Source: Candidatus Omnitrophota bacterium (GTDB taxonomy: Bacteria > Omnitrophota > Gorgyraeia > Zapsychrales > Fredricksoniimonadaceae). Taken from it: DNA of 64,000 bases. The notes below the pieces were generated by a model, which had not been told where the DNA came from, did not search any database, and saw nothing but the letters and a program-made list of their open reading frames with translations. This document shows positions 499-24,052 of this stretch, piece after piece. Position numbers and translations under genes: made by a program. The stretch spans positions 26,273 through 90,272 of the forward strand of contig JAGWOI010000001.1 of the NCBI GenBank assembly GCA_028870995.1, in the 5' to 3' direction. How positions within the stretch are numbered: position 1 is the stretch's first letter; each line of letters starts with the position of its first letter.

Positions 499-512
499 TA
501 CAAAGAATTTTA

Positions 513-1781: not shown

Positions 1782-1784
1782 ATC

Positions 1785-4744: not shown

Positions 4745-4788
4745 AATTTCGTATTTTTATATTTCCTTCCTTCCCCTATACTTTAGAT

Positions 4789-5577: not shown

Positions 5578-5607
5578 AAACGCCGGTGGTATAATTGACC
5601 TTAAATT

Positions 5608-6675: not shown

Positions 6676-7316
6676 GCGCTATCCGGGTCATATTGGCCGA
6701 TGATCATGCCATGCTGAGGTCAGGCTTAAGGGGTTTATTGGAGAAAAACCCTGATTTTAAAGTCGTCGGGGAAGCCGGCAACGGTGAGGTCCTGCTGGAC
6801 AAATTAAAAAGCACCAAGGTCGATTGCGTTGTTCTGGATCTGTCCATGCCCCTGATGGACGGTCTGGAAACCCTCAAGGAACTGCGCCAGCGCCACCCCA
6901 AGCTCAAGGTCCTGATACTGACCATGCAAAAAGATATCGACCATTTCAAGTACGCCATGGCCCACGGAGCCAACGGCTATGTCCTTAAAGACGGGGCTTT
7001 TGAACAACTGGTCATGGCCATCAAGATGGTCATGAAGGGCAAAAGTTTTGTGTCACCGGCGATTTCCGAATATATAACGGAGCAGTATGTGCGCTCCATC
7101 GAGGCGAGCGACGTTCCCTCCCTGGAAATCCTTACTAACCGCGAGAAACAGGTTCTAGCCCTTATCGTCAAGGGAGCGGCCAACAAAAACATCGCCTCTT
7201 CCTTGAAAATCAGCATCAGGACCGTCGAAACCCACCGTAGCCGCCTCATCCACAAATTGGGCATCAAGACCGCTGCCGGCCTGGTCAAATACGCCATGGC
7301 CAAGGGTCTGATTTGA
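6672..7316 (+). CDS. NarL/FixJ-family response regulator (receiver + LuxR HTH)
   Basis: RVILADDH...LDLSMP receiver motifs. C-terminal LuxR-type HTH (LTNREKQVLALIVKGAANKNIASSLKISIRTVETHR). ATGA overlap with the kinase gene. Confidence 0.85.
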   Translation: MSAIRVILADDHAMLRSGLRGLLEKNPDFKVVGEAGNGEVLLDKLKSTKVDCVVLDLSMPLMDGLETLKELRQRHPKLKVLILTMQKDIDHFKYAMAHGANGYVLKDGAFEQLVMAIKMVMKGKSFVSPAISEYITEQYVRSIEASDVPSLEILTNREKQVLALIVKGAANKNIASSLKISIRTVETHRSRLIHKLGIKTAAGLVKYAMAKGLI

Positions 7317-7436
7317 CCCCTCCGTCCTTCCTTAAGTGTTACTACGTACGGCCTTAAGTAGTTCACCCCATTCATATTTTCTCCTTTTGAGATTATCCTG
7401 TAAGTAGTTGAAGTGCCGTCTAAAAGGGTAGGATTT

Positions 7437-7829: not shown

Positions 7830-8837
7830 ATGAAGCTGGCAAGCTTGCATAACAAGATCCTTTTCAGCATGGTATCTTTGCTGCTGTTGCTGGGCTTTTT
7901 TATATGGCTGGTGACCCAAACTTTTTTGTTATCGCTTAAGACCAGCGTTTTCCAGTCGCTGCATTCGCTGCATTTGCTGATGCTGACGACGACCTTGGGG
8001 TTTGCCTTGCTCGGGATATTCCTGGCCTTTTACCTGTCGGGTCTCATCACCAAACCACTTTCACAGCTGGTCCAGGGGATAGAGGCGATCAAGAAGGGGG
8101 ATTTCTCAGGAAGGATCGATATCCGGACCGAAGACGAGATCGGGGTTCTGGCCGGTGCTTTCAATGAAATGAGTGACCGTTTGAACCTGCTTATCAGCGA
8201 GGTGACGGCCCTTGCCAAGTTCCGCGAGAGGGAGAAGATAGCCCTGGATTTCCATGACGGCTGCGCCCAGGACCTGGTCAGTCTTTTAAAAAGAATTGAA
8301 TTGTGTGAAAAACTGGTTGAGGCCAGATCTCCGGAGGCGCTGGTGGAATTGGGACTTTTGAGGGACTATACCAAGAATATTTTGACCTCCACCCGGAACA
8401 TGATCTGTGATTTGAAATCGAAGGAAGATTTCGAAGTGCCGTTGGTGGAGAAAATCAGCGGTTTCCTGAAGGATTATGAAAGGATCAATGGTTGTAAAGT
8501 CGCTTTCAACGCTTCGGGGCCGGTGACGGCCCTTTCATCGGACCAAAATGAACATTTATTTTATATCATCACGGAGGCCTTGAGCAATATAAGGAAACAC
8601 AGCAGGGCGCAAAAAGTGACGGTAAATATTAAATCCAGTTTGCAACACCTTGAAGTTACGGTGAAGGACAATGGCAAGGGTTTTGATGTGGCCGCAGAAA
8701 ATGCGGATGATCCCCATCGCAGGAAATTCGGCCTGATGGCGATGCGCCATAGGGCCCAGGCGATAGGCGCGCGGTTAAACATCCAGTCGACCATCGGCCG
8801 GGGAAGCGAAGTGGGCTTGGAGCTAGGAGTTAAATAA
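7830..8837 (+). CDS. Membrane sensor histidine kinase (HAMP + HisKA_3 + HATPase_c)
   Basis: Two N-terminal TM helices, a HAMP-like linker, H-box LDFHDGCAQDLVSL and the DNGKGF G-box. Confidence 0.8.
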   Translation: MKLASLHNKILFSMVSLLLLLGFFIWLVTQTFLLSLKTSVFQSLHSLHLLMLTTTLGFALLGIFLAFYLSGLITKPLSQLVQGIEAIKKGDFSGRIDIRTEDEIGVLAGAFNEMSDRLNLLISEVTALAKFREREKIALDFHDGCAQDLVSLLKRIELCEKLVEARSPEALVELGLLRDYTKNILTSTRNMICDLKSKEDFEVPLVEKISGFLKDYERINGCKVAFNASGPVTALSSDQNEHLFYIITEALSNIRKHSRAQKVTVNIKSSLQHLEVTVKDNGKGFDVAAENADDPHRRKFGLMAMRHRAQAIGARLNIQSTIGRGSEVGLELGVK

Positions 8838-9493
8838 TGTCACAAGTACGTGTCTTTTTATGCGATGACCACACCTTGTTCCGTCAAGGTGTCAAGAAGC
8901 TGCTGGATTTGGAAAAGGACATTAAGGTGGTGGGAGAAGCCGGCGATGCCTATCAAATGTTTGAGGCATTAAGGTCACTTGCCGTGGATATTGTACTTTT
9001 GGATATCAATATGCCCAAAATGGACGGGGTGAAGGCCACCTTCAGGATAAGGAAGGAACACCCGCATGTGGCGGTGGTCATTTTGACGGTCCATGAGGAT
9101 GAGCCTTATATTTTTCAGGCGATCAAGGCAGGTGCCATGGGGTATCTCCTTAAGGATGTGTCCATCAAGGAGTTGGCCGAAGCCGTGCGCAAGGTGTCTG
9201 AAGGGGAAGCCCTCCTTCAGCCGATCATTGCTTCAAAGGTTCTAAAAGAATTCGTGATGCTGGATAAAAGGAAGGCCAGGGAAGGCCAAAAGTCTGGCAG
9301 TAATTTAACGGCACGGGAAGAGGAAATCCTGAGGTTTATTGCCATGGGCGATTCAAACAAGGAGATTGCGCAAAAAATCGGGATTACCGAGAAGACCGTC
9401 AAAAACCATGTCAGCAATATCCTTACCTGTCTTCACGTGAACAACCGCACCCAGGCCGCCCTTTATGCTTTGGGTAAAACTCCGGCAACCTGA
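8837..9493 (+). CDS. NarL/FixJ-family response regulator (receiver + LuxR HTH)
   Basis: VFLCDDHTLFRQG...LLDINMP receiver. LuxR HTH LTAREEEILRFIAMGDSNKEIAQKIGITEKTVKNH. Confidence 0.85.
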   Translation: MSQVRVFLCDDHTLFRQGVKKLLDLEKDIKVVGEAGDAYQMFEALRSLAVDIVLLDINMPKMDGVKATFRIRKEHPHVAVVILTVHEDEPYIFQAIKAGAMGYLLKDVSIKELAEAVRKVSEGEALLQPIIASKVLKEFVMLDKRKAREGQKSGSNLTAREEEILRFIAMGDSNKEIAQKIGITEKTVKNHVSNILTCLHVNNRTQAALYALGKTPAT

Positions 9494-9505
9494 GCAAGCA
9501 AAAAC

Positions 9506-9525
9506 TATAGGACTAAAGTCCTATA
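9506..9525 (+). terminator. Inverted repeat tataggac-taaa-gtcctata followed by an A/T-rich tract. Possible terminator of the preceding response-regulator gene or a regulatory hairpin in the hemA leader.
   Basis: Perfect 8-bp arms seen directly in the sequence. The stem is AT-rich, so terminator function is uncertain. Confidence 0.3.
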
Positions 9526-9764
9526 AAAATATAGGTCTTTTTATTTTGAGGCTCTAGGACTTTCAGGACTTCAATTAAAAACGAATTTATAGATAATTTG
9601 TTCAACCCTTTCAGAAACATTAGATTTTAGCCGGTTTATGCGTGTTACTACGTAAACTTGGGGGGGATTCCACTCATTTGTTTCCTACTTGAGAGGACGT
9701 AGACTTAAGACGAGGTACATTTCAAGAAAAATTTTGGGGAAGGCCGATTTTAGGAAGGGACATT

Positions 9765-10811
9765 ATGAACATCCTGGCGGTTGGAATCAATCATAAGACC
9801 TCGTCTATAGATATTAGGGAAAGGTTCTTTTTACAGCCTCTTGAGCGGGAATTGCTTGTAAACGAGCTGCTAAAGGACCCGCGCATCATTGAGGCTTTTG
9901 TCCTGTCAACCTGCAACCGGACGGAAATTTATGCCAATGCGATCGAGGACCAGCCGCAGCTGCTGATGAAGGCGTTGTTTAAAATCAAGAAGGTTCCCTT
10001 AAGTGCCGATCTGGCCGGTCATTTTTATACCCTGTCATCCCGCCAGGCCATTGACCACCTGTTGCGGGTGACCACGGGGTTGGATTCTCTGGTGGTGGGT
10101 GAAAAACAGATTTTAGGCCAGGTTAAGGAGGCTTTTGAATTCTCCAGAAGCAAAGGCGCATTGAGCAAAACTTTTAATGTTCTTTCCAATCTGGTGGTGC
10201 AGACCGGCAAAAAAGCCCGACATGAGACGCAGATCGATTTTGGCGGTTCATCGGTCAGCTGGGCGTCGGTCATGATGGCGCAGGATATTCTGGGTTCATT
10301 GCAGGACAAAGCTGTCTTGATTTTGGGCTCAGGCAAAATGGGCCGCTTGGCTGTGGAGCAGCTGGCTAAAAAGGGTGTGGCCAAGATCTATATCATGAAT
10401 AGGACGATCGAAAAAGCCCAGGAATTGGCCCGCGAAAGCGGCGGGATAGCCGTGGGCATTTGGGACATCAAGGAAATCCTGCAGCAGGTCGATGCCTGCA
10501 TCTGCTCGGCCAGCTGCACGCACCATTTAATAGAGAAGGACCTGGTGGAAGCCGCCATGGCCGCCCGGCCGTCCCGTCCCTTGGTATGCATCGATATCTC
10601 CATGCCCCGCAATATTGCGCCTGAGGTGGCGGAAGTGGGGAATGTACGCCTGGCGACGGTGGATGACTTGGACAGGATCGTGGAGAGCAATATGCAAAAG
10701 CGGATGTCGGCCGTCGCCCTGGTGGAAGGTCTGATCGACCGGAAGATCGATGAATTCTACAAAACTATGGAGAAGATTACCCTAATCAAGGAGGAATTAT
10801 GGAAAGCTTAA
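9765..10811 (+). CDS. hemA: Glutamyl-tRNA reductase
   Basis: MNILAVGINHKTSSIDIRERF...STCNRTEIY, with the conserved catalytic Cys in TCNR, and an NADP-binding GSGKMG Rossmann motif. Confidence 0.9.
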   Translation: MNILAVGINHKTSSIDIRERFFLQPLERELLVNELLKDPRIIEAFVLSTCNRTEIYANAIEDQPQLLMKALFKIKKVPLSADLAGHFYTLSSRQAIDHLLRVTTGLDSLVVGEKQILGQVKEAFEFSRSKGALSKTFNVLSNLVVQTGKKARHETQIDFGGSSVSWASVMMAQDILGSLQDKAVLILGSGKMGRLAVEQLAKKGVAKIYIMNRTIEKAQELARESGGIAVGIWDIKEILQQVDACICSASCTHHLIEKDLVEAAMAARPSRPLVCIDISMPRNIAPEVAEVGNVRLATVDDLDRIVESNMQKRMSAVALVEGLIDRKIDEFYKTMEKITLIKEELWKA

Positions 10812-11077
10812 AAACACTGGTGGTCACGTTGTTCGGATTGGGCCTTGTCTTTTGGGCTGCCTCGAGCCAGGCGGATATTGCTCAGATGAAAGCCTATAAG
10901 GAAGTTTATCCCGATGCCAAGCCCAAATGCATCGATTGTCATGTGGACAAGATGCCCAAGAAGGCGGACGGGGCCCATGATCCTAATGATTACGGCAAGG
11001 CCGTCATCAAAGCGGCCGGTGCGGAAAAGCCGACAGCCGATACCTATAAAAAGGTAGGACCTATTCCTACAAAGTAA
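10799..11077 (+). CDS. Small secreted monohaem c-type cytochrome
   Basis: 92 aa with a signal peptide and a single CIDCH haem-binding motif. Overlaps the hemA stop by 13 nt. Confidence 0.65.
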   Translation: MESLKTLVVTLFGLGLVFWAASSQADIAQMKAYKEVYPDAKPKCIDCHVDKMPKKADGAHDPNDYGKAVIKAAGAEKPTADTYKKVGPIPTK

Positions 11078-11124
11078 AGAAGATTGAGTATAACACCGGG
11101 CCTAAGCCTACAGAAAGGCATTCT

Positions 11125-11892
11125 ATGATCGGACAGAAAAAGTCACTGGTTGTATTCTTGGCGGCACTTGGGTTGTTTTGGGTAACAGGACTATCTTTAT
11201 CCCAAGCGGACCAGAACAAGGTCAATGAGATGTTGTATTTAAAGAAAGCCAAGTATGTAGGTATGGACACCTGCGCAATGTGCCATGAGAAGGAGGTAAA
11301 GGAATACAAGCTCTCAACGCACGCGCGTATCCATATCAAGAACGATACCACCGGTGCCGAGGATTGCGAGGTCTGTCACGGCCCGGGCAGCGTCCATGTG
11401 GATGCTTCCGGCGGTAAAGGTAATATCATCAATCCTTCCAAGGATCCGGAAATATGTTTTAACTGCCATACAGATAAAAAGATGCAATTCCGCCTGCCTT
11501 ATCATCATCCAGTTCTGGAAGGCAAGATGAGCTGCACGGATTGCCACAATCCCCACGGGATCGATGTCCGTCCCTGGACCGCCACTTCTGAGAACGGTAT
11601 CAATGAGGTGTGTTTCAAGTGCCATACGGACAAACGCGGTCCTTATATCTGGCAGCATGATGCTTTGAAAGACGGCTGTACGTCATGCCATCAGGTGCAT
11701 GGTTCGGTTAATGACAAAATGCTGATCGCGAGAGACTATAACCTGTGTTTGCGCTGCCATGCCATGAATAATTTCCCCTATGGCCATGGCCAGAACGGCC
11801 AATACCATGATTTTGTTTATGGGACTTGCTGGAGCGCAGGATGCCATTCAGAACCTCACGGGTCTAATTTTGATCATTATTTTCGTTATTAA
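11125..11892 (+). CDS. Periplasmic multihaem c-type cytochrome with 7 CxxCH motifs plus one CX4CH
   Basis: Signal peptide. Motifs CAMCH, CEVCH, CFNCH, CTDCH, CFKCH, CTSCH, CLRCH and CWSAGCH within 255 aa. The size and haem density resemble periplasmic partners of porin-cytochrome conduits. Confidence 0.8.
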   Translation: MIGQKKSLVVFLAALGLFWVTGLSLSQADQNKVNEMLYLKKAKYVGMDTCAMCHEKEVKEYKLSTHARIHIKNDTTGAEDCEVCHGPGSVHVDASGGKGNIINPSKDPEICFNCHTDKKMQFRLPYHHPVLEGKMSCTDCHNPHGIDVRPWTATSENGINEVCFKCHTDKRGPYIWQHDALKDGCTSCHQVHGSVNDKMLIARDYNLCLRCHAMNNFPYGHGQNGQYHDFVYGTCWSAGCHSEPHGSNFDHYFRY

Positions 11893-11907
11893 CAGAGAGG
11901 ATAAAAC

Positions 11908-14070
11908 ATGAAAATTCTTCGGATTTTACTCTCAATCATGGTGGCATCGTACATGACACAAGTAGGCTATCTGGCATTGGCCCAGGATGTGGGCACTTCG
12001 CCTTTCAGCGTCACTTTCGAGCCGCTGCAGTACGCTTATGTCAAAGGCAATGTGGGAAAATTCCAGGCGCTTAATTGGATGAAGGCCGGTGAGAACCCGG
12101 GAGCCAGTGATATAAGTTTTGTTAAGCAGATCAACAAGGACATTTCCGTGGAAGCCGAGGGGAGCGTGTTTCCCAAAACCGATGACGGTACTGGACATCT
12201 GGTCCTGCAGGACGGGGATCTGGCCTTTTTGCAGGTGGATTATAAGGCCTTTAGAAAATGGTATGACGGTACAGGCGGATTTTATCCAAATAATGTCTAT
12301 ACTCTCAGCACCTATGTTGCGCCGCCGGGTGTTTCCACCTTTACAAATTATGGCACCATCACCGTAAATCAGGGCGCCCAACCTAACAGCCCTGCGCTGC
12401 AGATGGACATCAGTTATTTCAAATTGGAAGCGGGTTTAGGGCCGATCAGCGACCCTTATTTGGACATCGCCTATGAACACAATACCAAGAACGGCGATAA
12501 GTCGCTTCTGGAGTGGACTCCTGTCTATGTACCAGGTCAAACCGCATCAGGTGCCGAGAGGAAAATTGGTCCGGCATGGGGATCATTCAACGATTATGTT
12601 GATACCATCACCTTAAAGGAAAAGAAGGAGATCGCCGGTGTCACTCTCAAAGGAGAGCAAAAGGCAGAAATTGATTACAATAACGATATCAAGTACATGC
12701 AGTATCTGAATGATACCGTTTCCGGACAGCCGAATCAACTGAACACCTTTAATGAATCTCCGGATGCCAAGCTTTTCGGCGCAGGGGTCAGGGCGGAAAA
12801 ATGGATGCTTAATGACAATACCTATGCTGCGTTGGGGTATCATTACAACCATATCCATGACACCGACCTGATGCAGCAGGCTGAGTTTACCTCCACCGAT
12901 GGCGTTGTTTATACTGCCTATGCGGGCGGCACCTCGGGATGGAATTATTCGAAGGCGTCGGAAGATGACCATGTCTGGGTGGGCAACCTTAATTCCAATC
13001 TGACGAAGAATTTGTCCCTGCTTACCGATGTCAGGTATGAACATCAGGGCACGGAGGGAGATTCTACCTATTATGCGACCGGTAGTTCGGGGGTATATGA
13101 CTCCAATATGGCCAACCATGAAGATCAAACAGGGGAGCATATTGGGTTACGTTATTTTGGCATCCCGCATACCAGTCTATATATGGATGGTGAATGGCAA
13201 CAGGACAGAAACTGGGTCGATGAGTCGTATATCGCTCTTTCAGGGTCGACAAGGAATACTTTCTCCAACCTGGAGAGGCTCAATAGGACCCAGAAAGAAT
13301 CATGGACCGTGGGAGGTAGGATTTATCCCAACAGGTTCTTTATTTTTTCAACCCAGGTCAGGGCCCATAATCAATACAGCGGTTATGATACGATTTCGAA
13401 TCCTGACGCAAGCGGTGTTGTTTTAATGAGTTCCCTTAGGGAAAAAGGCGTGGATGAGACCTCCACCCTTACCTGGAAACCGTTTCGATGGATTCAAAAT
13501 TCCTTAAAATATCAGTTTTCTGATACGGTTTATAACCCCCGGTTGGATCCGTCAGCCGGCGGAAGCAGCGACCCCCTGCCTGCATCGGGAAATTACAATA
13601 TCAGTGAAAACCATATGCTGACTTCAGCATTCACGTACGATATCACCGTGCAGCCCATTGATCCTTTGCTGCTGATGTTGTCCTATTCCCACGTGGAGAA
13701 TTATGTCAGAACGATAGGCGCCGCTGACACAGGGACGATTGCGGAGGGTGGCCCTACCTATATCCCTGTTTTCAATTCAGGGGACAACAGCTGGCTTTTT
13801 TCGACCACGTATTGTCCGTCAGATAATTGGGACTGGACCAACACGGTCAGCTATACGATTTCGAATAATTACGTCGATTCCGGCGACGGCGTTCCTTATG
13901 GTTCTGATTTCAAGATGTTCAATTTTACATCGGGCCTGGAATACAAGTACCATCATTGGCTCAAGATCAGTCCCCAGTATGAATATGCCGCTTACAAGGA
14001 TAATCCTGTGGCAGGGGCAGGCAACTATTCGGCCAATATTTTTATCTTGAAGGCAGGATTTGACTGGTAA
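11908..14070 (+). CDS. Putative outer-membrane beta-barrel protein (porin-like, 720 aa), candidate conduit component
   Basis: Signal peptide. Composition rich in Y/G/N/T/S/D with alternating hydrophobic residues. C-terminal strand ends ...ILKAGFDW with a terminal aromatic residue. Sits between cytochrome genes. Confidence 0.55.
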   Translation: MKILRILLSIMVASYMTQVGYLALAQDVGTSPFSVTFEPLQYAYVKGNVGKFQALNWMKAGENPGASDISFVKQINKDISVEAEGSVFPKTDDGTGHLVLQDGDLAFLQVDYKAFRKWYDGTGGFYPNNVYTLSTYVAPPGVSTFTNYGTITVNQGAQPNSPALQMDISYFKLEAGLGPISDPYLDIAYEHNTKNGDKSLLEWTPVYVPGQTASGAERKIGPAWGSFNDYVDTITLKEKKEIAGVTLKGEQKAEIDYNNDIKYMQYLNDTVSGQPNQLNTFNESPDAKLFGAGVRAEKWMLNDNTYAALGYHYNHIHDTDLMQQAEFTSTDGVVYTAYAGGTSGWNYSKASEDDHVWVGNLNSNLTKNLSLLTDVRYEHQGTEGDSTYYATGSSGVYDSNMANHEDQTGEHIGLRYFGIPHTSLYMDGEWQQDRNWVDESYIALSGSTRNTFSNLERLNRTQKESWTVGGRIYPNRFFIFSTQVRAHNQYSGYDTISNPDASGVVLMSSLREKGVDETSTLTWKPFRWIQNSLKYQFSDTVYNPRLDPSAGGSSDPLPASGNYNISENHMLTSAFTYDITVQPIDPLLLMLSYSHVENYVRTIGAADTGTIAEGGPTYIPVFNSGDNSWLFSTTYCPSDNWDWTNTVSYTISNNYVDSGDGVPYGSDFKMFNFTSGLEYKYHHWLKISPQYEYAAYKDNPVAGAGNYSANIFILKAGFDW

Positions 14071-14082
14071 AGGTTATGAACA

Positions 14083-15582
14083 ATGAGCTCAAAACCAGCC
14101 AAACAACGGTTCGACGACAGTTTTTATAACAACATCACCTATATCGGTGTAGTCTTATCGTTGTTTGTGCTGGTTTGCGAGCTCTTTTTGTTCGCCATTG
14201 ATTTTGCCTCTCCGCGGCCCAGCGTTTATCTGGGGCTGATCACGTATTGTTTTCTGCCGCCGCTTTTGATCCTCGGGCTTATCTTAATCCCGACAGGCGC
14301 CCTTCTTAAGCGAAAACACATTCTTCATTCAGGAAAACCGCGGCCGATCCTGATTGATCTTTCCCTGGCGACCCATCAAAATGCCGTGGTGATTTTCATG
14401 ATCGGCACGGTGCTGCTCTTGGTCATGACTGCCATCGGTTCCTACAAGGCTTTCAATTACACGGAATCGACCGGGTTTTGCGGGTTGACCTGCCATCAGA
14501 TCATGAAACCCGAATATACGACACATAGCCATTCCCCCCATGAGCGGGTCAGGTGTGTTGAGTGCCATGTCGGATCAGGAGCGGATTGGTACCTGCGTTA
14601 TAAGATGGCCGGGACCAAGATGGTGGTCAAAACTTTCGACGGCAGGTATCATCGTCCCACCCCGGCGCCTCTCCAGAACCTGCGTCCGGCCAAGGAGATC
14701 TGTGAACAGTGTCATTGGCCGGGTAAATTGTTCAGCGCGGTATTGCTCAATAAGGTTTATTATGCCGATGATCCGACCCAGACCCCGCCATGGAAGATCA
14801 ACCTGCTGATGCGTGTCGGTGCCGGCAAGGTCGGTGGTGCGGGGGTTCACGCCCACATGTATTTTAGCAATGAGATTTTTTACGTGGCTGATGATGCTAA
14901 GCGGCAGAATATCACCTGGGTCAAGACGATCGACAAGGCTGGCAAGGTTACCATCTACACGACCAAGGATTCACCTTATAAAAAAGTCAACCCGCCACAG
15001 GACAAGGTCCGCCGGATGGATTGCATTGACTGCCATAACCGCGCCACGCACCGTTTCGAGGCGCCGGATGTACTCATGAACCGCGCCTTGGCCCAAGGCG
15101 CTATCAGCTCTTCCATTCCCATGATCAAGTCCGAAGGCGTTGAAGTACTGGGCAAGACCTATAGCTCCACTGCCGCCGCGGAAAAACAGATCCGCGAGGG
15201 CTTGATGGATTATTACAGTAAGAAGCAGCCTGGCTATTTCGCCGGCCACCAGGCCGCTGTCGAGAATGCCATTGCCGAGATCATCCGTTTGTACCGCAAG
15301 AATTTCTTTCCGGAAATGAAATCCCGCTGGGACGCCTATCCGGACAACATCGGGCACATGATTTCGTTGGGCTGTTTCCGGTGCCATGACAATGAGCACA
15401 AGTCCGCGGGCGGCCGGGTGATTTCTCGGAAATGCACCCTTTGCCATGTCATCGTGGAACAGGGCAGCGGCACCTCGACCGAGAAGAATCTGGAGGGGCT
15501 GGAATTTAAGCATCCTTTCAACGATCCCGGTGATGACTCATGGAAGACGGCCAATTGCTCAGACTGCCATACCGGAAGTTAG
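14083..15582 (+). CDS. Membrane-anchored heptahaem c-type cytochrome (NapC/NirT-related, ImcH-like architecture)
   Basis: Three N-terminal hydrophobic helices, then CGLTCH (CX3CH), CVECH, CEQCH, CIDCH, CFRCH, CTLCH and CSDCH. Confidence 0.7.
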   Translation: MSSKPAKQRFDDSFYNNITYIGVVLSLFVLVCELFLFAIDFASPRPSVYLGLITYCFLPPLLILGLILIPTGALLKRKHILHSGKPRPILIDLSLATHQNAVVIFMIGTVLLLVMTAIGSYKAFNYTESTGFCGLTCHQIMKPEYTTHSHSPHERVRCVECHVGSGADWYLRYKMAGTKMVVKTFDGRYHRPTPAPLQNLRPAKEICEQCHWPGKLFSAVLLNKVYYADDPTQTPPWKINLLMRVGAGKVGGAGVHAHMYFSNEIFYVADDAKRQNITWVKTIDKAGKVTIYTTKDSPYKKVNPPQDKVRRMDCIDCHNRATHRFEAPDVLMNRALAQGAISSSIPMIKSEGVEVLGKTYSSTAAAEKQIREGLMDYYSKKQPGYFAGHQAAVENAIAEIIRLYRKNFFPEMKSRWDAYPDNIGHMISLGCFRCHDNEHKSAGGRVISRKCTLCHVIVEQGSGTSTEKNLEGLEFKHPFNDPGDDSWKTANCSDCHTGS

Positions 15583-17177
15583 GTCCGGGGGCCTTTTTTT
15601 TATTGTTCCTGACGGCCTTCCCGGCACTGGCCCAGCAGCCGTCCACGGGATCCGTTAAGTTTACCAATCAGGACTGCCTGAGCTGTCATGCCGACGGAGC
15701 CCCCATCGTTGACCAGAAAATTTTTGGCCATTCCGTCCACGGGAAGCTTAATTGCACGGATTGCCACCGTAGCATCACCGACCTTCCACATGCGGAAAAA
15801 CTCCCGAAGGTCGATTGTGCGGTTTGCCATAAGAAGGAGGCCGTGCTTTGGCAGCACAGCGGCCATGCCCAGGCCCTTGGCAACGGTGCCCTGAAAGCTC
15901 CTTCTTGTGAATTTTGTCACGGGACGCATGGTATCACGAAGGCAACTGACAGGCAGTCCCGGTTGTATTGGGCTAATATCCCAGCCATTTGCGGCCAATG
16001 CCACTTCCAAGAGTATAAGGAATACCGTCGAGGTATTCATGGACAGGCCCTGGCCTCCGGCAGCAGGGATGCTCCCGTGTGCACCGATTGCCATGGGGAG
16101 CACGATATCGCTGCTGTTAAGGGAGGAGCTTCCTGGGTTTCCGCGGCCCGTATTCCTCAAACCTGCGGGCAATGCCACTCGGCGGAACGTATCAACAGCA
16201 AGTACAATCTGGCCTCGAACGTTTTAGGAAGCTACATGCAAAGCTATCATGGTCTTGCCATGCAGCAGGGGACCATGACCGCTGCCAACTGCGCTTCCTG
16301 CCATGGGGCGCATGAGATCCTTCCTTCGTCGGACCCGCGCTCCACCATCAATCCCAAGAATTTGGAAAAAACCTGCGGCCGGTGCCATCCCGGCATTGGC
16401 GCCCGGGTGGCCAGCGCCAAAATTCATGAAAGTTTTCAGCCGGGCAATAACCCCCTTAACGATTGGGTAAGCCGTTTTTATATCTTCTTTATCATTTTTG
16501 TCTCAGGTATCCTTTTGCTGCACAATGTCCTGGATTTCTCCAAAAAAGCCCGGGCCCATTACCGGAATTCCATGGGAAAAGGAGCCGAGTATATGGGTTT
16601 TAACGAGCGCTGCCAGCATTTTATCCTGGCCATGACCTTTATCCTTCTGGCGTACACTGGATTTTCCATCAAATTTCCCCAAACTTGGTGGTCATTCATG
16701 TTTTTTGGACACACCGATTGGCTGCGTTGGGGGCACCGCAGTGTTGCCGTCGTCTTTTGCTTGCTGGGCGCCTACCATTTTACCTATTTGTTTTTTACCC
16801 CCAAGGGCCGGTGGCAACTCAAGGCGTTGAGCGTCAGGAAGACGGACTTTGTCCAGTTTTGGCAGAGCTTTCAATATTATTTTGGCCGGCGGGAAGATAA
16901 GCCGCGCAGCAGCGGCATTTACAGTTATGTGCAAAAGCTGGAGTATTGGGCCCTGTTGTGGGGAGGCATGGTGATGGTGCTGACCGGTGCGCTCATGTTC
17001 AACGAAGTCTGGTTTTTCAGCTTATTTCCCAAATGGCTGTATGACGTGGTTAGGACGGTTCACCTGTACGAGGCCATCCTGGCCTGCGTGACCATTGTCA
17101 TCTGGCACGGTTATTTTGTTATTTTCGATCCTGAGATTTACCCCGGCAAAGGGTCATGGCTTCATGGACGGGAGTAG
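15540..17177 (+). CDS. Nonahaem c-type cytochrome fused to a dihaem b-type cytochrome membrane domain (CbcL-like quinol oxidoreductase)
   Basis: Signal peptide. Nine CxxCH motifs (CLSCH, CTDCH, CAVCH, CEFCH, CGQCH, CTDCH, CGQCH, CASCH, CGRCH). A C-terminal domain of about 240 aa with five TM helices carrying conserved His residues, of the HydC/FdnI (Ni/Fe-hydrogenase b-type cytochrome) type. Confidence 0.75.
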   Translation: MEDGQLLRLPYRKLGPGAFFLLFLTAFPALAQQPSTGSVKFTNQDCLSCHADGAPIVDQKIFGHSVHGKLNCTDCHRSITDLPHAEKLPKVDCAVCHKKEAVLWQHSGHAQALGNGALKAPSCEFCHGTHGITKATDRQSRLYWANIPAICGQCHFQEYKEYRRGIHGQALASGSRDAPVCTDCHGEHDIAAVKGGASWVSAARIPQTCGQCHSAERINSKYNLASNVLGSYMQSYHGLAMQQGTMTAANCASCHGAHEILPSSDPRSTINPKNLEKTCGRCHPGIGARVASAKIHESFQPGNNPLNDWVSRFYIFFIIFVSGILLLHNVLDFSKKARAHYRNSMGKGAEYMGFNERCQHFILAMTFILLAYTGFSIKFPQTWWSFMFFGHTDWLRWGHRSVAVVFCLLGAYHFTYLFFTPKGRWQLKALSVRKTDFVQFWQSFQYYFGRREDKPRSSGIYSYVQKLEYWALLWGGMVMVLTGALMFNEVWFFSLFPKWLYDVVRTVHLYEAILACVTIVIWHGYFVIFDPEIYPGKGSWLHGRE

Positions 17178-17179
17178 GT

Positions 17180-19957
17180 ATGCTGGCCGCAATTTTGAAT
17201 ATTATTGTTCTTTTATTTCTGTCAGGAATGCCGGTCTGTGCCCAGACAGCGGGCTCTAACCCGGCCGCCCCCGCCAAGGCCGCGACCGGCAATGATGATT
17301 GCCTGGCCTGCCACGCCGATGCCAGTCAGGCGCCGTTTGTTGATCAGGATAAATTTAAGGCTTCGGTGCATGGCAGGCAGTTGTGCACGGATTGCCACAT
17401 CGATTTAATCGGGAGTGATTTTCCCCATAAAACACCTTTGCCGGTCGATTGCGGCCGCTGCCATGCCGGACAAAAGGCTTTGTTTGCCGCCAGTATCCAC
17501 GGCCAGGCCCTGGCCCATGGGGACAAACTGGCGCCACGGTGCGTTAACTGCCATGGAAATCATTATATCCTTCCGGTTAAGAGCAGAAATTCTCAGGTAG
17601 CGCCGCTGAACATTCCTTTTGTCTGCGGTTCCTGCCATAGCGAGGGCAAGCCGGTTTCAGAGCAGCGGCAGATCCCCGAACATCATATCCTGGAAAATTA
17701 TTCCGAGAGCATGCACGGTGAAGCCCTTCTTAAAAAGGGTTTGAGCGTCACCGCCACCTGCGCCTCCTGCCACCGGGCCCACGAGATCCTGCCTCCCGCG
17801 GACCCGCGTTCTTCCATCGCCCGCGGCAATATCGTCAAGACCTGCTTGCAATGCCACAGCCAGATCGAGAAGGTGCACCGTAAGATCATCAAAGGCGAGT
17901 TGTGGGAAAAAAGCCCGCAGAGCATTCCGGTCTGTGTGGACTGCCATCAGCCTCATAAGATACGCAAGGTTTATTATGCAGCCGGGGAGGCCGACAAGGA
18001 TTGTTTGACCTGTCACGGCAAGAAGGATATTGTTTCTTCCAAGGATCACCGTTCGCTTTATGTCGATGAGAACCAGCTCAGTAATTCCATCCATGCCAAG
18101 GTGGCCTGCGCCCAGTGCCATGCCCAGGTTTCAGTTTCTCATGCAAGGCCTTGCGAAACCATCACCAAAAAAGTGGATTGCTCGATCTGCCATAGCCAGC
18201 AGGTCGAACTTTACCAGCAGGGGATCCATGGCAAATTGTTCAATGCCGGCAATCCCAATGCGCCTTCGTGTGCGGAGTGTCACGGCACCCACGGCATCCT
18301 GTCGCATAAAAATATTAATGCGCCCACCTATCCGACCCATATTCCCGGTCTTTGCGGCCGCTGCCACCGCGAGGGCAAGCAGGCCGCCGTGCTCTACAAA
18401 GGGACCGAACATAATATTCCTAAAAATTATGTGGAAAGCATTCATGGCAAGGGCCTGCTGCAAAGCGGGCTGGTGGTGACCGCGACCTGCGTCAGCTGCC
18501 ATACGGCCCACAAGCAGCTTCCTGCCTCTGATCCCGGCTCCACGGTGAACCGCAACAATATCGCATTGACTTGTTCAGCCTGCCACCAGGGCGTCTATGA
18601 GCAATACGTCAAGAGCGTGCATGCCGTGGACGGCGGCAAGAATTCCGGCAAGCTGCCCGTGTGTAATGACTGTCACACGGCACATACCATCAAAAGGACG
18701 GACCAGAACGCCTTTAAATTCGGGATCATGAACACCTGCGGTAAGTGCCATCGGGCCATTGCCGAGACGTACTTCCAGACGGTGCATGGGAAAATTTCCA
18801 AGTTGGGCTACACGAAGGCCGCCAAATGCCAGGATTGTCACGGTTCCCACCAGATTTACCGGGTGACCGATCCGCGCTCAACGTTGAGCCGTCAGAACAT
18901 CGTGCATACCTGCCGGCAATGCCATCAAGGCGCCACCCGACGTTTTGCCGGTTACCTGACCCATGCCACCCACCATGACCCCAAGAAATACCCTTGGATA
19001 TTCTGGACCTTCTGGTGCATGACCGCCTTGCTGGTGGGCACTTTCAGTGTCAGCCTGTTGCACACCTTGTTGTGGCTGCCCAAATCTCTGGAAATGCGAA
19101 GGCTTTATCCGCAAAAGCACATTGTTTCCAAGGAAAAGCAGTATGTGCGTTTCCCGGTGTTCTACCGCATCCTGCACATCATCATGATCATCAGTTTTAT
19201 GACGCTGACCACCACCGGCATGACACTGAAATTTTCTTATGCACATTGGGCGCAGTTTGTTTCAAGGGTCCTGGGCGGTTTCGCGGTCACCGGTTTTCTG
19301 CACCGCTGCGCGGCGGTGGCGTTGTTGGGCATTTTTGCGGCCCATATCTGGCAGGTGTTCAATCAAAAACGTACCGAAAACAAGAGCCTGAAGCAAATTC
19401 TTTTCGGTCCTGACAGCATTCTCTTTGCCAGGAAGGATTGGCGTGAATTTTTGGCCACCGTAAAGTGGTATGCCGGCAAAGGTCCGTACCCGCAATACGG
19501 CAAGTGGACCTACTGGGAAAAATTTGATTATTTTGCCGTTCTGTGGGGGATCATGGTCATAGGCACCTCGGGGCTGATGCTGTGGTTTCCCGAGGGCTTC
19601 ACCCATTTCCTGCCGGGATGGGTCATCAATGTCGCCACCATCATTCATAGCGACGAAGCCTTGCTGGCCGCGGGTTTTATTTTTACCGTGCATTTCTTCA
19701 ACACCCATTTCAGGCCGGAGAAATTCCCCATGGACACGGTGATCTTCACCGGGCGTATGTCCGTCGAGGACCTGAAGCGCGAGCGGCCCAAGGAATACGA
19801 GGCCCTGATGGCCAACGGAGAGCTTGAAAAGAACCTGGCCGAGCCGCTGTCACCGGCAAGGATCCTGGCCATCCGCATCTTCGGCTGGACCGCGCTTTCC
19901 ATCGGATTGGTGCTGGTTATGTGCATCATCTACACCATGATCTTCGGTTACAGGTAA
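17180..19957 (+). CDS. 19-haem c-type cytochrome fused to a dihaem b-type cytochrome membrane domain (extended CbcL-like protein)
   Basis: Start placed at ATG 17180, which follows a GGGAG motif. The ORF-track start at 17156 overlaps the upstream stop. 19 CxxCH motifs counted from CLACH to CRQCH. C-terminal 5-TM His-containing b-type domain from about 18983. Confidence 0.75.
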   Translation: MLAAILNIIVLLFLSGMPVCAQTAGSNPAAPAKAATGNDDCLACHADASQAPFVDQDKFKASVHGRQLCTDCHIDLIGSDFPHKTPLPVDCGRCHAGQKALFAASIHGQALAHGDKLAPRCVNCHGNHYILPVKSRNSQVAPLNIPFVCGSCHSEGKPVSEQRQIPEHHILENYSESMHGEALLKKGLSVTATCASCHRAHEILPPADPRSSIARGNIVKTCLQCHSQIEKVHRKIIKGELWEKSPQSIPVCVDCHQPHKIRKVYYAAGEADKDCLTCHGKKDIVSSKDHRSLYVDENQLSNSIHAKVACAQCHAQVSVSHARPCETITKKVDCSICHSQQVELYQQGIHGKLFNAGNPNAPSCAECHGTHGILSHKNINAPTYPTHIPGLCGRCHREGKQAAVLYKGTEHNIPKNYVESIHGKGLLQSGLVVTATCVSCHTAHKQLPASDPGSTVNRNNIALTCSACHQGVYEQYVKSVHAVDGGKNSGKLPVCNDCHTAHTIKRTDQNAFKFGIMNTCGKCHRAIAETYFQTVHGKISKLGYTKAAKCQDCHGSHQIYRVTDPRSTLSRQNIVHTCRQCHQGATRRFAGYLTHATHHDPKKYPWIFWTFWCMTALLVGTFSVSLLHTLLWLPKSLEMRRLYPQKHIVSKEKQYVRFPVFYRILHIIMIISFMTLTTTGMTLKFSYAHWAQFVSRVLGGFAVTGFLHRCAAVALLGIFAAHIWQVFNQKRTENKSLKQILFGPDSILFARKDWREFLATVKWYAGKGPYPQYGKWTYWEKFDYFAVLWGIMVIGTSGLMLWFPEGFTHFLPGWVINVATIIHSDEALLAAGFIFTVHFFNTHFRPEKFPMDTVIFTGRMSVEDLKRERPKEYEALMANGELEKNLAEPLSPARILAIRIFGWTALSIGLVLVMCIIYTMIFGYR

Positions 19958-20095
19958 GCCCCTACGTAGTTTTGTACGTAGTAGTACTGATTTACCAGGG
20001 CAGGGAGAGGGATTAAGATTAACCACAATATGTAGTGGTAGTTCCTTCTCCTGTTATCAACAGGTAGTGTTTTAAAAACGAAAGGAGAAAGGGTC

Positions 20096-20329
20096 ATGAA
20101 GGTCATTGACAAGCGGGTCAAAAAAATCATCGAAGCCCCCAAGCAAAAACGCCTCTCCGGGCATTCCATCCCTAATTTTGAGAACTACATCAAAAGGATC
20201 GAGAAGAAAGCCTATGAGCTTTATGAGAAGCGCGGGTGTTGCCATGGACATGACCAGGAAGACTGGCTGGAGGCCAAAAGACTCGTTGAAGATGAATTGT
20301 GTAAGGGAACAGCGGTTTTTGATATATAA
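20096..20329 (+). CDS. DUF2934-family small protein
   Basis: 77 aa. C-terminal A-Y-E-L-Y-E-K-R-G...DW-L-E-A-K motif characteristic of DUF2934. Confidence 0.5.
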   Translation: MKVIDKRVKKIIEAPKQKRLSGHSIPNFENYIKRIEKKAYELYEKRGCCHGHDQEDWLEAKRLVEDELCKGTAVFDI

Positions 20330-20366
20330 ACAAGGGTGAACCCCAAATCCTTAAGGAGGGCACGGC

Positions 20367-22469
20367 ATGGCTGTCAGCTTATTCACTACCATCGTCAAGC
20401 GTAATGGAAAGAAAGAGGACTTTAATCCCCAGAAGATCGTCGGGGCCATTGCTAAAGCCGGCCAGGCCACGGGTGAATTCAATGAGGAAGTCGCCCGAAA
20501 ATTGGCGGTTCGGGTGGTCAATATCGCCCAGCAGATGTTTCCCAATGAACCGACGGTGGAAGGTATCCAGGATATTGTGGAAGATGTCCTTATTTCTTCG
20601 CCCTACCGCAAGACGACCAAGGCCTATATCCTTTACCGCCAGCAGCATGCCGAGATGCGCTCCATTGCCTCCAAGTTCAATACGGACCTGGTGGACCAAT
20701 ACTTGGGACAAAATGACTGGCGCGTCAATGAGAACAGCAACATGGCCTATTCCCTCCAGGGCTTAAACCACTATATATCGTCGGAAGTCAGCAAAATTTA
20801 TTGGCTGAACAAAATTTATCCCGTTTCCATCAAAGAAGCGCACCAGAACGGTGATTTTCACGTCCATGACCTGGGGCTTTTGAGCGTGTATTGTGTGGGT
20901 TGGGATTTGCAAGACCTGTTGGCTCAAGGATTCAAGGGTGTTTCCGGAAAAATGGAAAGCCGTCCGGCCAAGCACCTGCGCACCGCGCTCGGGCAGATCA
21001 TCAATTTCTTTTACACCCTGCAAGGGGAGGCGGCCGGTGCCCAGGCCTTTTCGAATTTCGATACCCTGCTGGCGCCCTTTATCCGCTACGACGGGCTGAC
21101 CTATGAGGCTGTCAAGCAGGTGCTGCAGGAGTTTGTTTTTAACATCAACGTGCCCACGCGTGTCGGGTTTCAAACACCCTTTACCAATATCACCATGGAC
21201 TTGACTGTACCCAGTTATTTCGCCAATCAGGGGGTCATTATCGGCGGGGAAGTCCAAAAGGAGACCTATGGAGAGTTCCAGAAGGAACTCGACATGTTCA
21301 ACAAGGCCTTCCTTGAAGTCATGCTGGCCGGCGACGCTAAAGGCCGGGTGTTCACCTTCCCGATACCGACCTACAATATGACCAAGGATTTTGATTGGGA
21401 TAATCCGAACCTGACCCTGCTTTGGGAAATGACCGCCAAGTACGGCATTCCTTATTTCTCCAATTTCATCAATTCGGACATGAATCCCGAGGATGCGCGC
21501 AGCATGTGCTGCCGCCTGCGCCTGGACAACCGTGAACTGCGCAGCCGCGGCGGCGGGCTGTTCGGCGCCTCTCCATTGACGGGTTCCATCGGGGTCGTGA
21601 CCATCAACCTGCCCCGCATCGGTTATGTGGCTAGGGACGAAGCTGAGTTCTTCGCCATCCTCGAGGACAAAATGAAACTGGCCAAGGAAAGCCTGGAGAT
21701 CAAGCGCAAGGTGCTTGAGCAGTTTACCGAGGGGAACCTGTACCCGTATATCAAGTTTTACCTGCGCAATATCAAAAAACGTTTCAATCAATACTGGAAA
21801 AACCACTTCTCCACCATCGGCCTGTTGGGCATGAACGAAGCCTGCTTGAATTTGCTGGGCCAGCCCATCGCCAGCCCCCAGGGGAAGGACTTTGCCGTGC
21901 GGGTGCTGAGCTTCATGAGGGACAAGTTAATGGACTTCCAGCAGGAGACCGGAAATATTTACAATCTGGAGGCCACTCCGGCCGAGGGCACCTCCTACAG
22001 CCTGGCCAGGATGGACAAGACCATGTATCCCGACATCATCTGTGCCAATGAAGAGCGCTATGCAAAGGGTTTCGAGCCTTTTTATTCCAATTCCAGCCAT
22101 CTGCCCGTGCAGCATACGGAAGATATTTTTGAGGCCCTCGACCATCAGGACGATCTGCAGACGCTTTATACAGGCGGGACGGTCCTGCACGGTTTCGTGG
22201 GCGAGCGCATCGGCGATCCGACGGCCTTAAAGAGCCTGGTGCGCTGCATTTGCTATAAATACCGCCTGCCGTACTTTACCATCACCCCAACTTTCAGCGT
22301 TTGCCCCAGCTGCGGGTATCTGGCGGGTGAACACCAGGTGTGCGATTCATGCGGTAATGAATGCGAAGTTTATTCACGGGTGGTCGGCTACTTAAGACCC
22401 GTCAAACAATGGAACAAGGGTAAGAAGGAGGAGTTCAAGAAACGCCGAACCTATCATGTATGCGCATAG
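20367..22469 (+). CDS. nrdD: Anaerobic ribonucleoside-triphosphate reductase (class III RNR)
   Basis: N-terminal ATP-cone (VKRNGKKEDFNPQKIVGAI). C-terminal CPSCG...CDSCG zinc ribbon. Glycyl-radical region RVVGYLRPV near the C-terminus. Confidence 0.9.
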   Translation: MAVSLFTTIVKRNGKKEDFNPQKIVGAIAKAGQATGEFNEEVARKLAVRVVNIAQQMFPNEPTVEGIQDIVEDVLISSPYRKTTKAYILYRQQHAEMRSIASKFNTDLVDQYLGQNDWRVNENSNMAYSLQGLNHYISSEVSKIYWLNKIYPVSIKEAHQNGDFHVHDLGLLSVYCVGWDLQDLLAQGFKGVSGKMESRPAKHLRTALGQIINFFYTLQGEAAGAQAFSNFDTLLAPFIRYDGLTYEAVKQVLQEFVFNINVPTRVGFQTPFTNITMDLTVPSYFANQGVIIGGEVQKETYGEFQKELDMFNKAFLEVMLAGDAKGRVFTFPIPTYNMTKDFDWDNPNLTLLWEMTAKYGIPYFSNFINSDMNPEDARSMCCRLRLDNRELRSRGGGLFGASPLTGSIGVVTINLPRIGYVARDEAEFFAILEDKMKLAKESLEIKRKVLEQFTEGNLYPYIKFYLRNIKKRFNQYWKNHFSTIGLLGMNEACLNLLGQPIASPQGKDFAVRVLSFMRDKLMDFQQETGNIYNLEATPAEGTSYSLARMDKTMYPDIICANEERYAKGFEPFYSNSSHLPVQHTEDIFEALDHQDDLQTLYTGGTVLHGFVGERIGDPTALKSLVRCICYKYRLPYFTITPTFSVCPSCGYLAGEHQVCDSCGNECEVYSRVVGYLRPVKQWNKGKKEEFKKRRTYHVCA

Positions 22470-23320: not shown

Positions 23321-24052
23321 ATGGCGGTGGCCGGCCAAAATCTGAAAGACCAATTAAAAAAACTGGTTGAATTGCAGGTCATAGACGAAGAGATTTTTCG
23401 TTATAAGCGCGAATTGCGCGAGAAGCCGGCCGAAGTCGAGACGCTTAAGGCCCAATTTGAAGCCAAGAAAGCAAGGCTAAAGCAGCTGGAAGAGAAGCTG
23501 AAGGTCATTCAAGTGTCGCAAAAGGAGATGGAATTGGATCTCAAGGCCAAGGAAGAAGGGATCGCCAAGGCCGATGGTTCCCTGAGCCTTTTGAAGACCA
23601 ATAAGGAATACCAGGCCCGGCTGCTTGAAATTGAAAACCAGAAGGCCGATAAATCACAGGTCGAGGAAAAGATCCTGTTGGGCTATGATGAGTTGGAGGC
23701 GGCCCGCAAGGCCCTGGAGGCTGAAAAGGCGGTGGTAGCCCAATACGAAAAAGATTTCAATGCCGCCAAGAAAAAACTAGACGATGAAGTGGCGGTGATC
23801 AACGACCAGCTGAAGGTCAAGGAATCGCAGCGCATCCGCGTCGCCCCCGAGGTCAGGCCTGATTTTTTAAGCCGTTATGAGCGCATTTTGAACAATAAGG
23901 ACGGCTTGGGGATCGTCAAGATCGTTGACCATACCTGCGGCGGCTGTTTCATGCATGTGACCGAGCAGGTCATCAATGAACTTAAGAAATACGAGGAGCT
24001 GGTGAGCTGCGACCAGTGCGCCAGGATCCTGTACCTGGCCGACGAGCTATGA
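23321..24052 (+). CDS. Coiled-coil zinc-ribbon domain protein (COG1579 family)
   Basis: About 200 aa of heptad-rich coiled coil, then CGGCFMHV...CDQCARIL C-terminal zinc ribbon. This family commonly lies upstream of rnhA and rnpB. Confidence 0.65.
   Translation: MAVAGQNLKDQLKKLVELQVIDEEIFRYKRELREKPAEVETLKAQFEAKKARLKQLEEKLKVIQVSQKEMELDLKAKEEGIAKADGSLSLLKTNKEYQARLLEIENQKADKSQVEEKILLGYDELEAARKALEAEKAVVAQYEKDFNAAKKKLDDEVAVINDQLKVKESQRIRVAPEVRPDFLSRYERILNNKDGLGIVKIVDHTCGGCFMHVTEQVINELKKYEELVSCDQCARILYLADEL

Follow-up and report, generated by a model that had tools for sequence, protein, structure and literature searches.

Among described systems, the Mto cluster of Sideroxydans lithotrophicus ES-1 (MtoD-MtoA-MtoB-CymA/ImoA, with MtoC versions in Gallionella and Dechloromonas) is one of the closest to the locus analysed here, a run of seven genes on a 64-kb stretch of DNA from an uncultured Omnitrophota bacterium (contig JAGWOI010000001.1). 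This whole stretch is called the window, and all coordinates refer to its positions. The Mto cluster groups the same four roles as the locus in the window, with a small monohaem cytochrome of the periplasm, a multihaem cytochrome of the MtrA family, a large barrel for the outer membrane and a quinone-linked cytochrome for the inner membrane, and MtoD is a bis-His monohaem cytochrome (PMC4412085). According to a 2018 survey, some species have a CbcL-type MtoC in one cluster with mtoAB, CbcL/MtoC-type genes adjoin mtoAB or mtrAB in Betaproteobacteria, where CymA or MtoC/MtrH is joined with MtoAB or MtrAB(C), and the Rhodoferax ferrireducens cluster (cymA, mtrH, mtrABC) combines several quinol oxidases with a conduit, as is the case here (PMC6295460). 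The same survey reports no mtrAB or mtoAB adjacent to imcH. In Geobacter, the ImcH and CbcL genes lie at separate loci, away from the Pcc and Ext conduits, whereas in the window they lie side by side and next to a candidate conduit. This contrast, which an earlier note on this DNA had drawn, is true but less special than it implied, given the Betaproteobacteria and Desulfuromonas acetexigens, whose ImcH and CbcL homologues have consecutive accession numbers (PMC12133095). For the Omnitrophota, Nobu et al. (2020) noted the expression of multihaem cytochromes. In the available part of Seymour et al. (2023, PMC10066038), FeGenie flags 'metal-reducing cytochromes' in the class Omnitrophia, 10 of its 23 species being reported with homologues of Desulfovibrio ferrophilus periplasmic cytochromes. 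These belong to the same phylum and probably to the same gene set, and that part of the report gives them as a presence/absence call, without barrel, ImcH linkage, hemA linkage or modular architecture.

The locus in the window is probably a porin-cytochrome extracellular-electron-transfer (EET) cluster through which electrons would flow outward from quinol. Based on the list of open reading frames (ORFs) and their translations, it consists of seven co-directional genes on the + strand (9765-19957), overlapping or near-abutting, as listed below with protein lengths in amino acids (aa) and transmembrane (TM) helices:

9765-10811, + strand: hemA, 348 aa
10799-11077, + strand: c1, monohaem cytochrome, 92 aa, one CxxCH motif
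11125-11892, + strand: c8, octahaem cytochrome, 255 aa, seven CxxCH motifs and one CX4CH motif
11908-14070, + strand: barrel, 720 aa, no haem motif
14083-15582, + strand: imcH-like gene, 499 aa, one CX3CH and six CxxCH motifs, three N-terminal hydrophobic helices
15540-17177, + strand: cbcL9, 545 aa, nine CxxCH motifs, five TM helices
17156-19957, + strand: cbcL19, 933 aa, 19 CxxCH motifs, signal/anchor and five to six TM helices

The successive junctions from hemA to cbcL19 measure -13, +47, +15, +12, -43 and -22 nt, and the c-type haem motifs of the cluster add up to 44. None of the other ORFs of the window has two or more CxxCH motifs, so the clustering of haem motifs is not a composition effect. 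The GC content of the cluster (0.48-0.54) is unremarkable compared with the rest of the window. According to the earlier note, hemA is followed by six cytochrome genes; the genes, their sizes and their haem counts stand, but the 720-aa protein is free of haem motifs, which leaves five cytochrome genes and one barrel gene. Gene spacing, the kept order and a weak 3' hairpin make a single transcript from hemA to cbcL19 a candidate.

Like the Mto cluster, the locus has no outer-surface cytochrome, and c1 is apparently bis-His ligated, as MtoD is. It differs in that c8 is an octahaem cytochrome with a terminal CX4CH instead of ten haems, the barrel falls outside every curated model, c1 is unrelated in sequence to MtoD, and the inner-membrane partner is of the seven-haem, three-TM ImcH type instead of the four-haem CymA/ImoA. 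Moreover, hemA is part of the unit, the host belongs to the Omnitrophota and not to the Betaproteobacteria, and the physiological direction of its electron flow is a predicted one. With Shewanella MtrCAB (6R2Q) the cluster shares an MtrA homologue and a barrel whose top global structural match is MtrB; unlike MtrCAB, it encodes no MtrC-type extracellular decahaem cytochrome, its MtrA homologue has eight haems, and its barrel is without detectable sequence similarity to MtrB models. The 12-haem outer-membrane cytochrome of the Geobacter Pcc systems (OmaB-OmbB-OmcB; Ext clusters) is also missing, and c8 is nearer to MtrA/DmsE than to any Geobacter family passing its cut-off.

A scan of one genome per species gave 32 related loci, which were mapped by tblastn and ORF maps. 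At least 15 distinct Omnitrophota-type loci have all five genes in the order hemA-c1-c8-barrel-imcH, and contig-truncated loci hold partial versions. Identity to the window proteins ranges from 50 to 74% for hemA, from 54 to 82% for c8, from 80% down to 28% for the barrel and from 40 to 81% for the imcH-like protein. So many independent genomes share this arrangement that chance cannot have produced it. What evolution has kept together is the five-gene core, and the two CbcL-like genes are an exchangeable accessory. The seven genes that the earlier note had treated as one unit are thus present as a cluster, but only the first five are conserved together. Two CbcL-type genes after imcH were found only in the window, L013 and L015, and single CbcL-type genes in L011, L017, L019 and L025. 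A 9-haem cytochrome with Rieske/cytochrome b is present in L002/L007, L016, L025 and L033, a tetrahaem cytochrome in L005, L008 and L011, and no extra module in L003, L018, L022 and L030. Because the identified alternatives are both quinol:cytochrome oxidoreductases, this swapping of the third module fits a shared role in connecting quinone pool and conduit. The c8-barrel pair occurs alone in L031 and L036, from metagenome-assembled genomes (MAGs) labelled Syntrophales and Lentisphaeria. A study on magnetotactic bacteria in acidic peat is the source of the nDJH MAGs, to which four related loci belong. Horizontal acquisition of the cluster was considered and rejected, with GC content unremarkable and synteny following divergence within the phylum.

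Some details of the accessory region were also recorded. Genes for a membrane-anchored 9-haem cytochrome, a Rieske protein and a cytochrome b lie between barrel and imcH in L002 (12253-15454), L016, L025 and L033, replacing the CbcL-type genes. L002 carries an extra copy of c1, and L016 an added tetrahaem cytochrome gene.

On its sequence, c8 is clearly a divergent homologue of MtrA/DmsE/MtoA, predicted to be a periplasmic or trans-outer-membrane octahaem cytochrome. A phmmer comparison with MtrA of the solved Shewanella Mtr complex (6r2q_A) gives an E-value of 2.9e-36, with the six C-terminal haem motifs collinear. The NF041028/GSU2203 family is matched at 174 bits, with a cut-off of 325. The 7-8-haem periplasmic cytochrome of the earlier note can be specified as one with eight motifs. 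The preceding protein, c1, has one CIDCH motif and an N-terminal signal-like helix, and its gene has an AAGGAGG ribosome-binding site. In the consensus of its orthologues (K.YK..[YF]P...K.C..CH...PKK..G.H..N.YG) the second His is invariant and no Met is conserved, which suggests bis-His ligation of the haem. No Pfam family and no PDB relative were found for c1 by sequence, and a sequence relationship with MtoD or another solved cytochrome was rejected, since nothing was detected. The protein is predicted to be secreted and is a candidate periplasmic shuttle. In L025 (8843-9982), c1 forms the N-terminal part of a fusion with the c8 orthologue, a protein of 379 aa with nine haem motifs, which is a Rosetta-stone hint that c1 and c8 may interact.

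The 720-aa protein was modelled with AlphaFold2 from a 34-sequence alignment, giving an all-beta structure with about 26-28 long strands. In a Foldseek search of this model against the PDB, MtrB (6r2q_B) ranked first with TM-scores of 0.57/0.62, and all other matches were at or below 0.44. As far as the model goes, the barrel fold is secure, and the specific likeness to MtrB is supported but not unanimous. The proposal of a putative outer-membrane beta-barrel is therefore borne out by structure modelling, and a soluble or non-barrel protein was not seen. At the sequence level, membership of MtrB/PioB was rejected, as no curated family matched the protein or ten relatives. These ten diverse members of the family matched no MtrB/PioB or other porin-cytochrome model, and gave only weak matches to hydrazine-synthase and PEP-CTERM outer-membrane models (E of about 0.003-0.009). 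A Pfam search found no plug or TonB-box domain in the barrel. The profile search returned 734 family representatives at 50% identity. An identical sequence, annotated as a hypothetical protein, is present in a Candidatus Omnitrophica MAG, and nearly all close homologues of the window protein are from Omnitrophota MAGs. More distant proteins of the family, about 800 aa long (P0236, P0251, P0253, P0258, P0269 and P0291), have an N-terminal monohaem domain with the motif D..RDI.PI....C..CHG, which we take to resemble the planctomycete PSCyt1 type; from their sequences, these fusions would be single-chain porin-cytochromes. Since such monohaem-barrel fusions and the c1-c8 fusion exist, barrel and c1 appear to be tied functionally to cytochromes. 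The barrel gene adjoins and follows the c8 orthologue in every locus with both (15-nt gap in the window), and the barrel is a candidate sheath for c8, analogous to MtrB/MtoB.

The 499-aa protein matches PF03264 (NapC/NirT) with 33.2 bits (gathering score 24.1) and NrfH 2j7a_C with an E-value of 0.0011. Its hydrophobic helices span residues ~14-32, 51-69 and 89-107, and its haem motifs are at 133 (CX3CH), 158, 207, 314, 431, 451 and 492. According to the published motif tables (PMC6295460), Geobacter sulfurreducens ImcH (GSU3259; 507 aa, three TM helices, CX3CH and six CxxCH) has its motifs at 132, 156, 205, 311, 428, 448 and 486, so the two sets of positions agree within 1-6 residues. ImcH homologues are defined there as proteins of 495-519 aa with three TM helices, a CX3CH beside the membrane region and then six CxxCH. 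The protein fits this published definition of the ImcH family (Levar 2014; Zhong and Shi 2018) and is a candidate quinol oxidase. Its earlier description as a three-TM heptahaem cytochrome of ImcH-like architecture agrees in length, helices, motif types, PF03264 match and spacing. In a homologue search, the best 120 of 6750 matches were all Omnitrophota-type, and Omnitrophica proteins with this motif layout have already been catalogued as ImcH homologues (PMC6295460).

The two genes that follow encode fusions of multihaem c and di-haem b domains. As in Geobacter CbcL (GSU0274), the cbcL9 protein combines nine CxxCH motifs with an FdnI/HydC-type b domain, and it matches PF01292 with 52.9 bits (gathering score 30.1), in line with the CbcL-like 9-haem fusion described before. 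Unlike GSU0274 (nine motifs, six TM helices), it has five TM helices, the last, C-terminal segment of cbcL19 having no counterpart in it; five-TM members of the CbcL/MtrH/MtoC family have been reported (PMC6295460). A second fusion is present here, cbcL19, which is a full-length paralogue of the first (BLASTP 2e-54) with a duplicated haem domain and six hydrophobic segments, the C-terminal one counted. Its PF01292 match of 23.1 bits is under the gathering score, and PF01292 is present in its homologues. The AlphaFold2 model of its C-terminal domain has a pLDDT of 90, and the sole significant PDB match is FdnI (1kqf_C; E 1.9e-5, TMt 0.75). Six His of the membrane domain are invariant across 42 sequences, both window paralogues included. 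Both fusions carry an FdnI-type di-haem b domain, in agreement with the dihaem b domains proposed for both in the earlier note, and the absence of a b-type fold was not seen. For ImcH-like and CbcL-like proteins, only weak matches to NrfH, NrfB and FdnI were found among solved structures in the PDB. Variants of the CbcL type with 19-20 haems have already been catalogued in Omnitrophica and Acidobacteria (PMC6295460).

In the favoured reading, outward EET, quinol in the inner membrane would be oxidised by the ImcH-like heptahaem cytochrome and, in this genome, also by the two CbcL-like proteins, whose FdnI-type di-haem b bundle would pass electrons to 9 or 19 periplasmic c-haems. The periplasm would be crossed via the 92-aa c1, or directly via the long 19-haem chain. 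Electrons would then enter the MtrA-like c8 threaded through the 720-aa barrel and exit at its outer face to soluble or surface-contacting acceptors, among which chelated Fe(III), humic/quinone moieties and mineral surfaces are plausible. Outward flow is favoured because the only role assigned to ImcH to date is quinol oxidation (PMC6295460), because metal-reducing cytochromes are flagged in the class Omnitrophia in the available part of PMC10066038, and because the neighbouring genes, encoding the anaerobic ribonucleotide reductase NrdDG, are anaerobic. As no outer-surface cytochrome is encoded, the conduit would resemble the two-component MtoAB/PioAB type. None of the computational checks that the earlier note had named, all of them carried out here, refuted its reading, but its complete menaquinol-to-cell-surface wire would, as with MtoAB/PioAB, reach only to the barrel's outer face.

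Glutamyl-tRNA reductase, encoded by hemA, is the first committed enzyme of the C5 pathway. The identity of the window gene was confirmed with the TIGR01035 equivalog model (336.7 bits, cut-off 209.55; model positions 1-337 of 416 aligned). The protein also matches PF05201 and PF01488, both over their gathering scores, and has the catalytic-Cys motif STCNRTE and the NADPH-binding motif GSGKMG. Pfam gives no match to GlutR_dimer, the C-terminal dimerisation domain being apparently absent from this short form. Since the hemA orthologues in relatives are all ~350 aa, the short form is lineage-wide and not a truncation artefact. The last 13 nt of hemA are shared with the start of the c1 gene, and this overlap is found in at least five relatives as well. 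Because hemA overlaps the first cytochrome gene, the supply of haem would rise along with the demand of the gene set, 44 c-haems and about four b-haems per copy.

Upstream of hemA and downstream of cbcL19, the following features were identified from Pfam and NCBIfam matches and a consensus scan:

1785-2885, + strand: ResB-like protein, system II cytochrome c maturation (PF05140, 58 bits)
2882-4744, + strand: CcsA/CcsB-like protein, system II cytochrome c maturation (PF01578 Cytochrom_C_asm, 73.7 bits; TIGR03144 CcsB, 129.5 bits, under the cut-off)
5608-6675 and 6672-7316, + strand: PAS histidine kinase and NarL-type regulator (Pfam)
7830-8837 and 8837-9493, + strand: HAMP histidine kinase and NarL-type regulator (Pfam)
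9494-9764: intergenic region of 271 bp, candidate promoter/operator and terminator of the upstream gene
20050-20064, + strand: terminator-like hairpin CCTGTTATCAACAGG with T-rich tail, 93 nt past the last stop codon (consensus scan)

In relatives, resB, ccsA, a radical SAM gene and two-component systems recur 5' of the core, and a histidine kinase, a response regulator and/or a REC-only gene lies directly 5' of hemA. The two upstream two-component systems probably control expression of the cluster. A perfect 9-bp palindrome, CTATAGGAC-TAA-GTCCTATAG (9505-9526), is present straight after the stop codon of the NarL-type regulator and could be an operator for this adjacent regulator or a terminator. 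The heptamer TAGGACT has five copies in the window, three of them within 9508-9561, and two additional TAGGACT/AGGACT copies lie near the palindrome (region 9505-9570). A conserved operator 5' of hemA was rejected, as the TAGGACT repeats are specific to the window and absent upstream of hemA in relatives. The hairpin at 20050-20064 is a weak candidate for the end of the transcription unit; terminator-like sites are modestly enriched in the window (22 versus 13 ± 3.9 in shuffles). A second weak hairpin with a run of seven T is found at 15572-15594, at the imcH stop and within the signal-peptide codons of cbcL9. Lying exactly at the boundary between core and accessory genes, it may attenuate transcription.

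Several observations weigh against outward EET through this cluster. A barrel and a cytochrome set are present without an MtrC/OmcB-type outer-surface multihaem cytochrome, either in the cluster or in the whole 64-kb window, and the named characterised conduits lacking such a cytochrome, MtoAB and PioAB, serve electron uptake. The four-role core matches the Mto cluster of Fe(II) oxidisers (MtoD, MtoA, MtoB, CymA/ImoA). Furthermore, c8 is below the curated decahaem cut-offs (TIGR03508, 162 bits, cut-off 192.2) and has eight haems, not ten, the count of seven CxxCH and a terminal CX4CH being kept in all orthologues. The 720-aa protein matches no Pfam or NCBIfam family at E ≤ 0.01, MtrB/PioB included, and the confidence of its model is moderate (pLDDT 69). 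A generic sigma-70 scan of the window was not enriched over shuffles, and promoter and terminator scans were uninformative. Since an outer-surface cytochrome is lacking and the core matches the Mto cluster, inward or reversible flow remains a serious rival, if one of low probability. In an Mto/Pio-type uptake or Fe(II) oxidation run on the same hardware, the donors to the octahaem-in-barrel would be Fe(II), reduced humics, a mineral or a partner cell. From there c1 would pass the electrons on to ImcH-like, CbcL-like or Rieske/cytochrome b modules in the inner membrane, which would reduce quinone or feed an oxidase. We consider this inward use unlikely. The core set of a monohaem cytochrome, an MtrA-like cytochrome, a barrel and a NapC/NirT-type protein does mirror the S. 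lithotrophicus mto cluster (PMC4412085; 10.1101/2022.01.10.475773), down to an apparently bis-His c1 (PMC4412085) and a conduit lacking an outer-surface cytochrome like MtoAB/PioAB, and CbcL/MtoC homologues are known in Fe(II) oxidisers (PMC6295460). A Rieske/cytochrome b complex is inserted into the cluster of several relatives, a bd oxidase gene is present in the window, and close relatives come from magnetotactic Omnitrophota of iron-cycling peat. However, the ImcH homologues known so far are all from Fe(III) reducers, with quinol oxidation as the one role ascribed to them (PMC6295460), c1 is without detectable sequence relation to any solved cytochrome, MtoD included, carbon-fixation and cytochrome c oxidase genes are not visible in the window, and the context, with NrdDG, is anaerobic.

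A cluster without any trans-outer-membrane conduit, in which a periplasmic chain would serve a soluble acceptor (nitrite, sulfur compounds, metalloids) and the 720-aa protein would be an ordinary diffusion or uptake barrel, is very improbable. It would account for a barrel that matches no cytochrome-associated curated family and for partial NrfH/NrfB-type matches, from families that also serve periplasmic reductases. Against it, the cluster lacks a catalytic reductase gene, c8 is specifically homologous to MtrA, and the barrel has no plug or TonB-box match and MtrB as its top global Foldseek match. Barrel and c8 genes are separated by 15 nt here and adjacent in every locus across several labelled phyla, and distant homologues of the barrel are fused to a cytochrome domain. 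A further alternative concerns only the view that the cluster is led by hemA, and is compatible with either direction of flow: hemA may be a housekeeping glutamyl-tRNA reductase at the tail of a haem-biosynthesis and cytochrome-maturation neighbourhood and not a functional leader. This is a real possibility, although less likely than not. In L002/L007, hemE, a hemY-like oxidase, resB, ccsA and a radical SAM gene (1-7371) lie contiguously and directly 5' of the cluster hemA, in the window and most relatives resB-ccsA-radical SAM is found a few kb upstream, and only one hemA is visible in the window. In turn, hemA and c1 are adjacent in every full-core locus, even where two-component or NrdDG genes lie between hemA and resB/ccsA, and their stop and start overlap in the window and at least five relatives. 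One relative has a second hemA elsewhere, so the cluster copy could be dedicated; this is L002/L007 (nDJH6bin18, a MAG of the magnetotactic study), where the second short hemA (19378-20436, 49% identical) lies beside moeA, mobA and ATP synthase genes.

Around the cluster, the window encodes NrdDG and a bd oxidase. Of the latter, the window edge leaves only the C-terminal part of the gene for cytochrome bd oxidase subunit II (16-498), which points to a quinol oxidase in the organism. The 409-bp region 3' of cbcL19 contains a DUF2934 ORF besides the terminator-like hairpin; this ORF of 77 aa (20096-20329) lies between cbcL19 and nrdD, and a DUF2934 gene near the cluster is also found in L003 and L004. 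No Pfam match was obtained for the ORFs at 1065-1781 (238 aa, directly 5' of resB, no NCBIfam match either) and 60220-61872 (550 aa). A stand-alone RNase H/RVT_3-type ORF (24016-24504) shares 37 nt with the end of the zinc-ribbon/coiled-coil gene before it. A lone cation-diffusion-facilitator transporter (54574-55491, - strand) belongs to a family that includes MamB/MamM and is probably a generic metal exporter; no other candidate magnetosome gene was found in the window.

In the literature, no description was found of the five-gene module, its hemA linkage or an exchangeable third unit. The inner-membrane families (ImcH; CbcL/MtrH/MtoC) are familiar, and the combination, the phylum-wide conservation, the barrel family and the hemA coupling appear to be new. 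We suspect that the unrecognisable barrel hid the link between imcH and a conduit from the 2018 survey, whose tables list Omnitrophica ImcH homologues (PMC6295460). The locus would be the first documented case of an ImcH gene beside an Mtr-like conduit. Its barrel would represent a new family of outer-membrane sheaths, which MtrB/PioB models and FeGenie-type screens would miss. The relatives point to natural modular swapping, in which ImcH is constant and the unit that serves one conduit changes between CbcL-type, Rieske/cytochrome b and tetrahaem forms. A wider, improbable reading is that the five-gene module is ancestral and vertically inherited in respiratory (including magnetotactic) Omnitrophota, and that it runs inward or both ways, with Fe(II)/Fe(III) or redox-active organic matter as its electron partners. 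If this were true, the module might feed or poise iron for magnetite formation, ImcH would be a quinone reductase or a reversible enzyme on an Mto-like conduit, contrary to the view that it is restricted to Fe(III) reducers, and an EET operon would have a haem-synthesis gene built into it.

The Omnitrophota, a widespread and uncultured phylum, are mostly discussed as ultra-small fermenters, acetogens or predators. The presence of the module in MAGs of magnetotactic Omnitrophota links it to iron-cycling organisms. With a conserved and seemingly complete envelope-spanning pathway in the respiratory lineages, the idea that such bacteria of peat, boreal lakes and groundwater respire metals or humics, or else take up electrons, would become concrete and testable.

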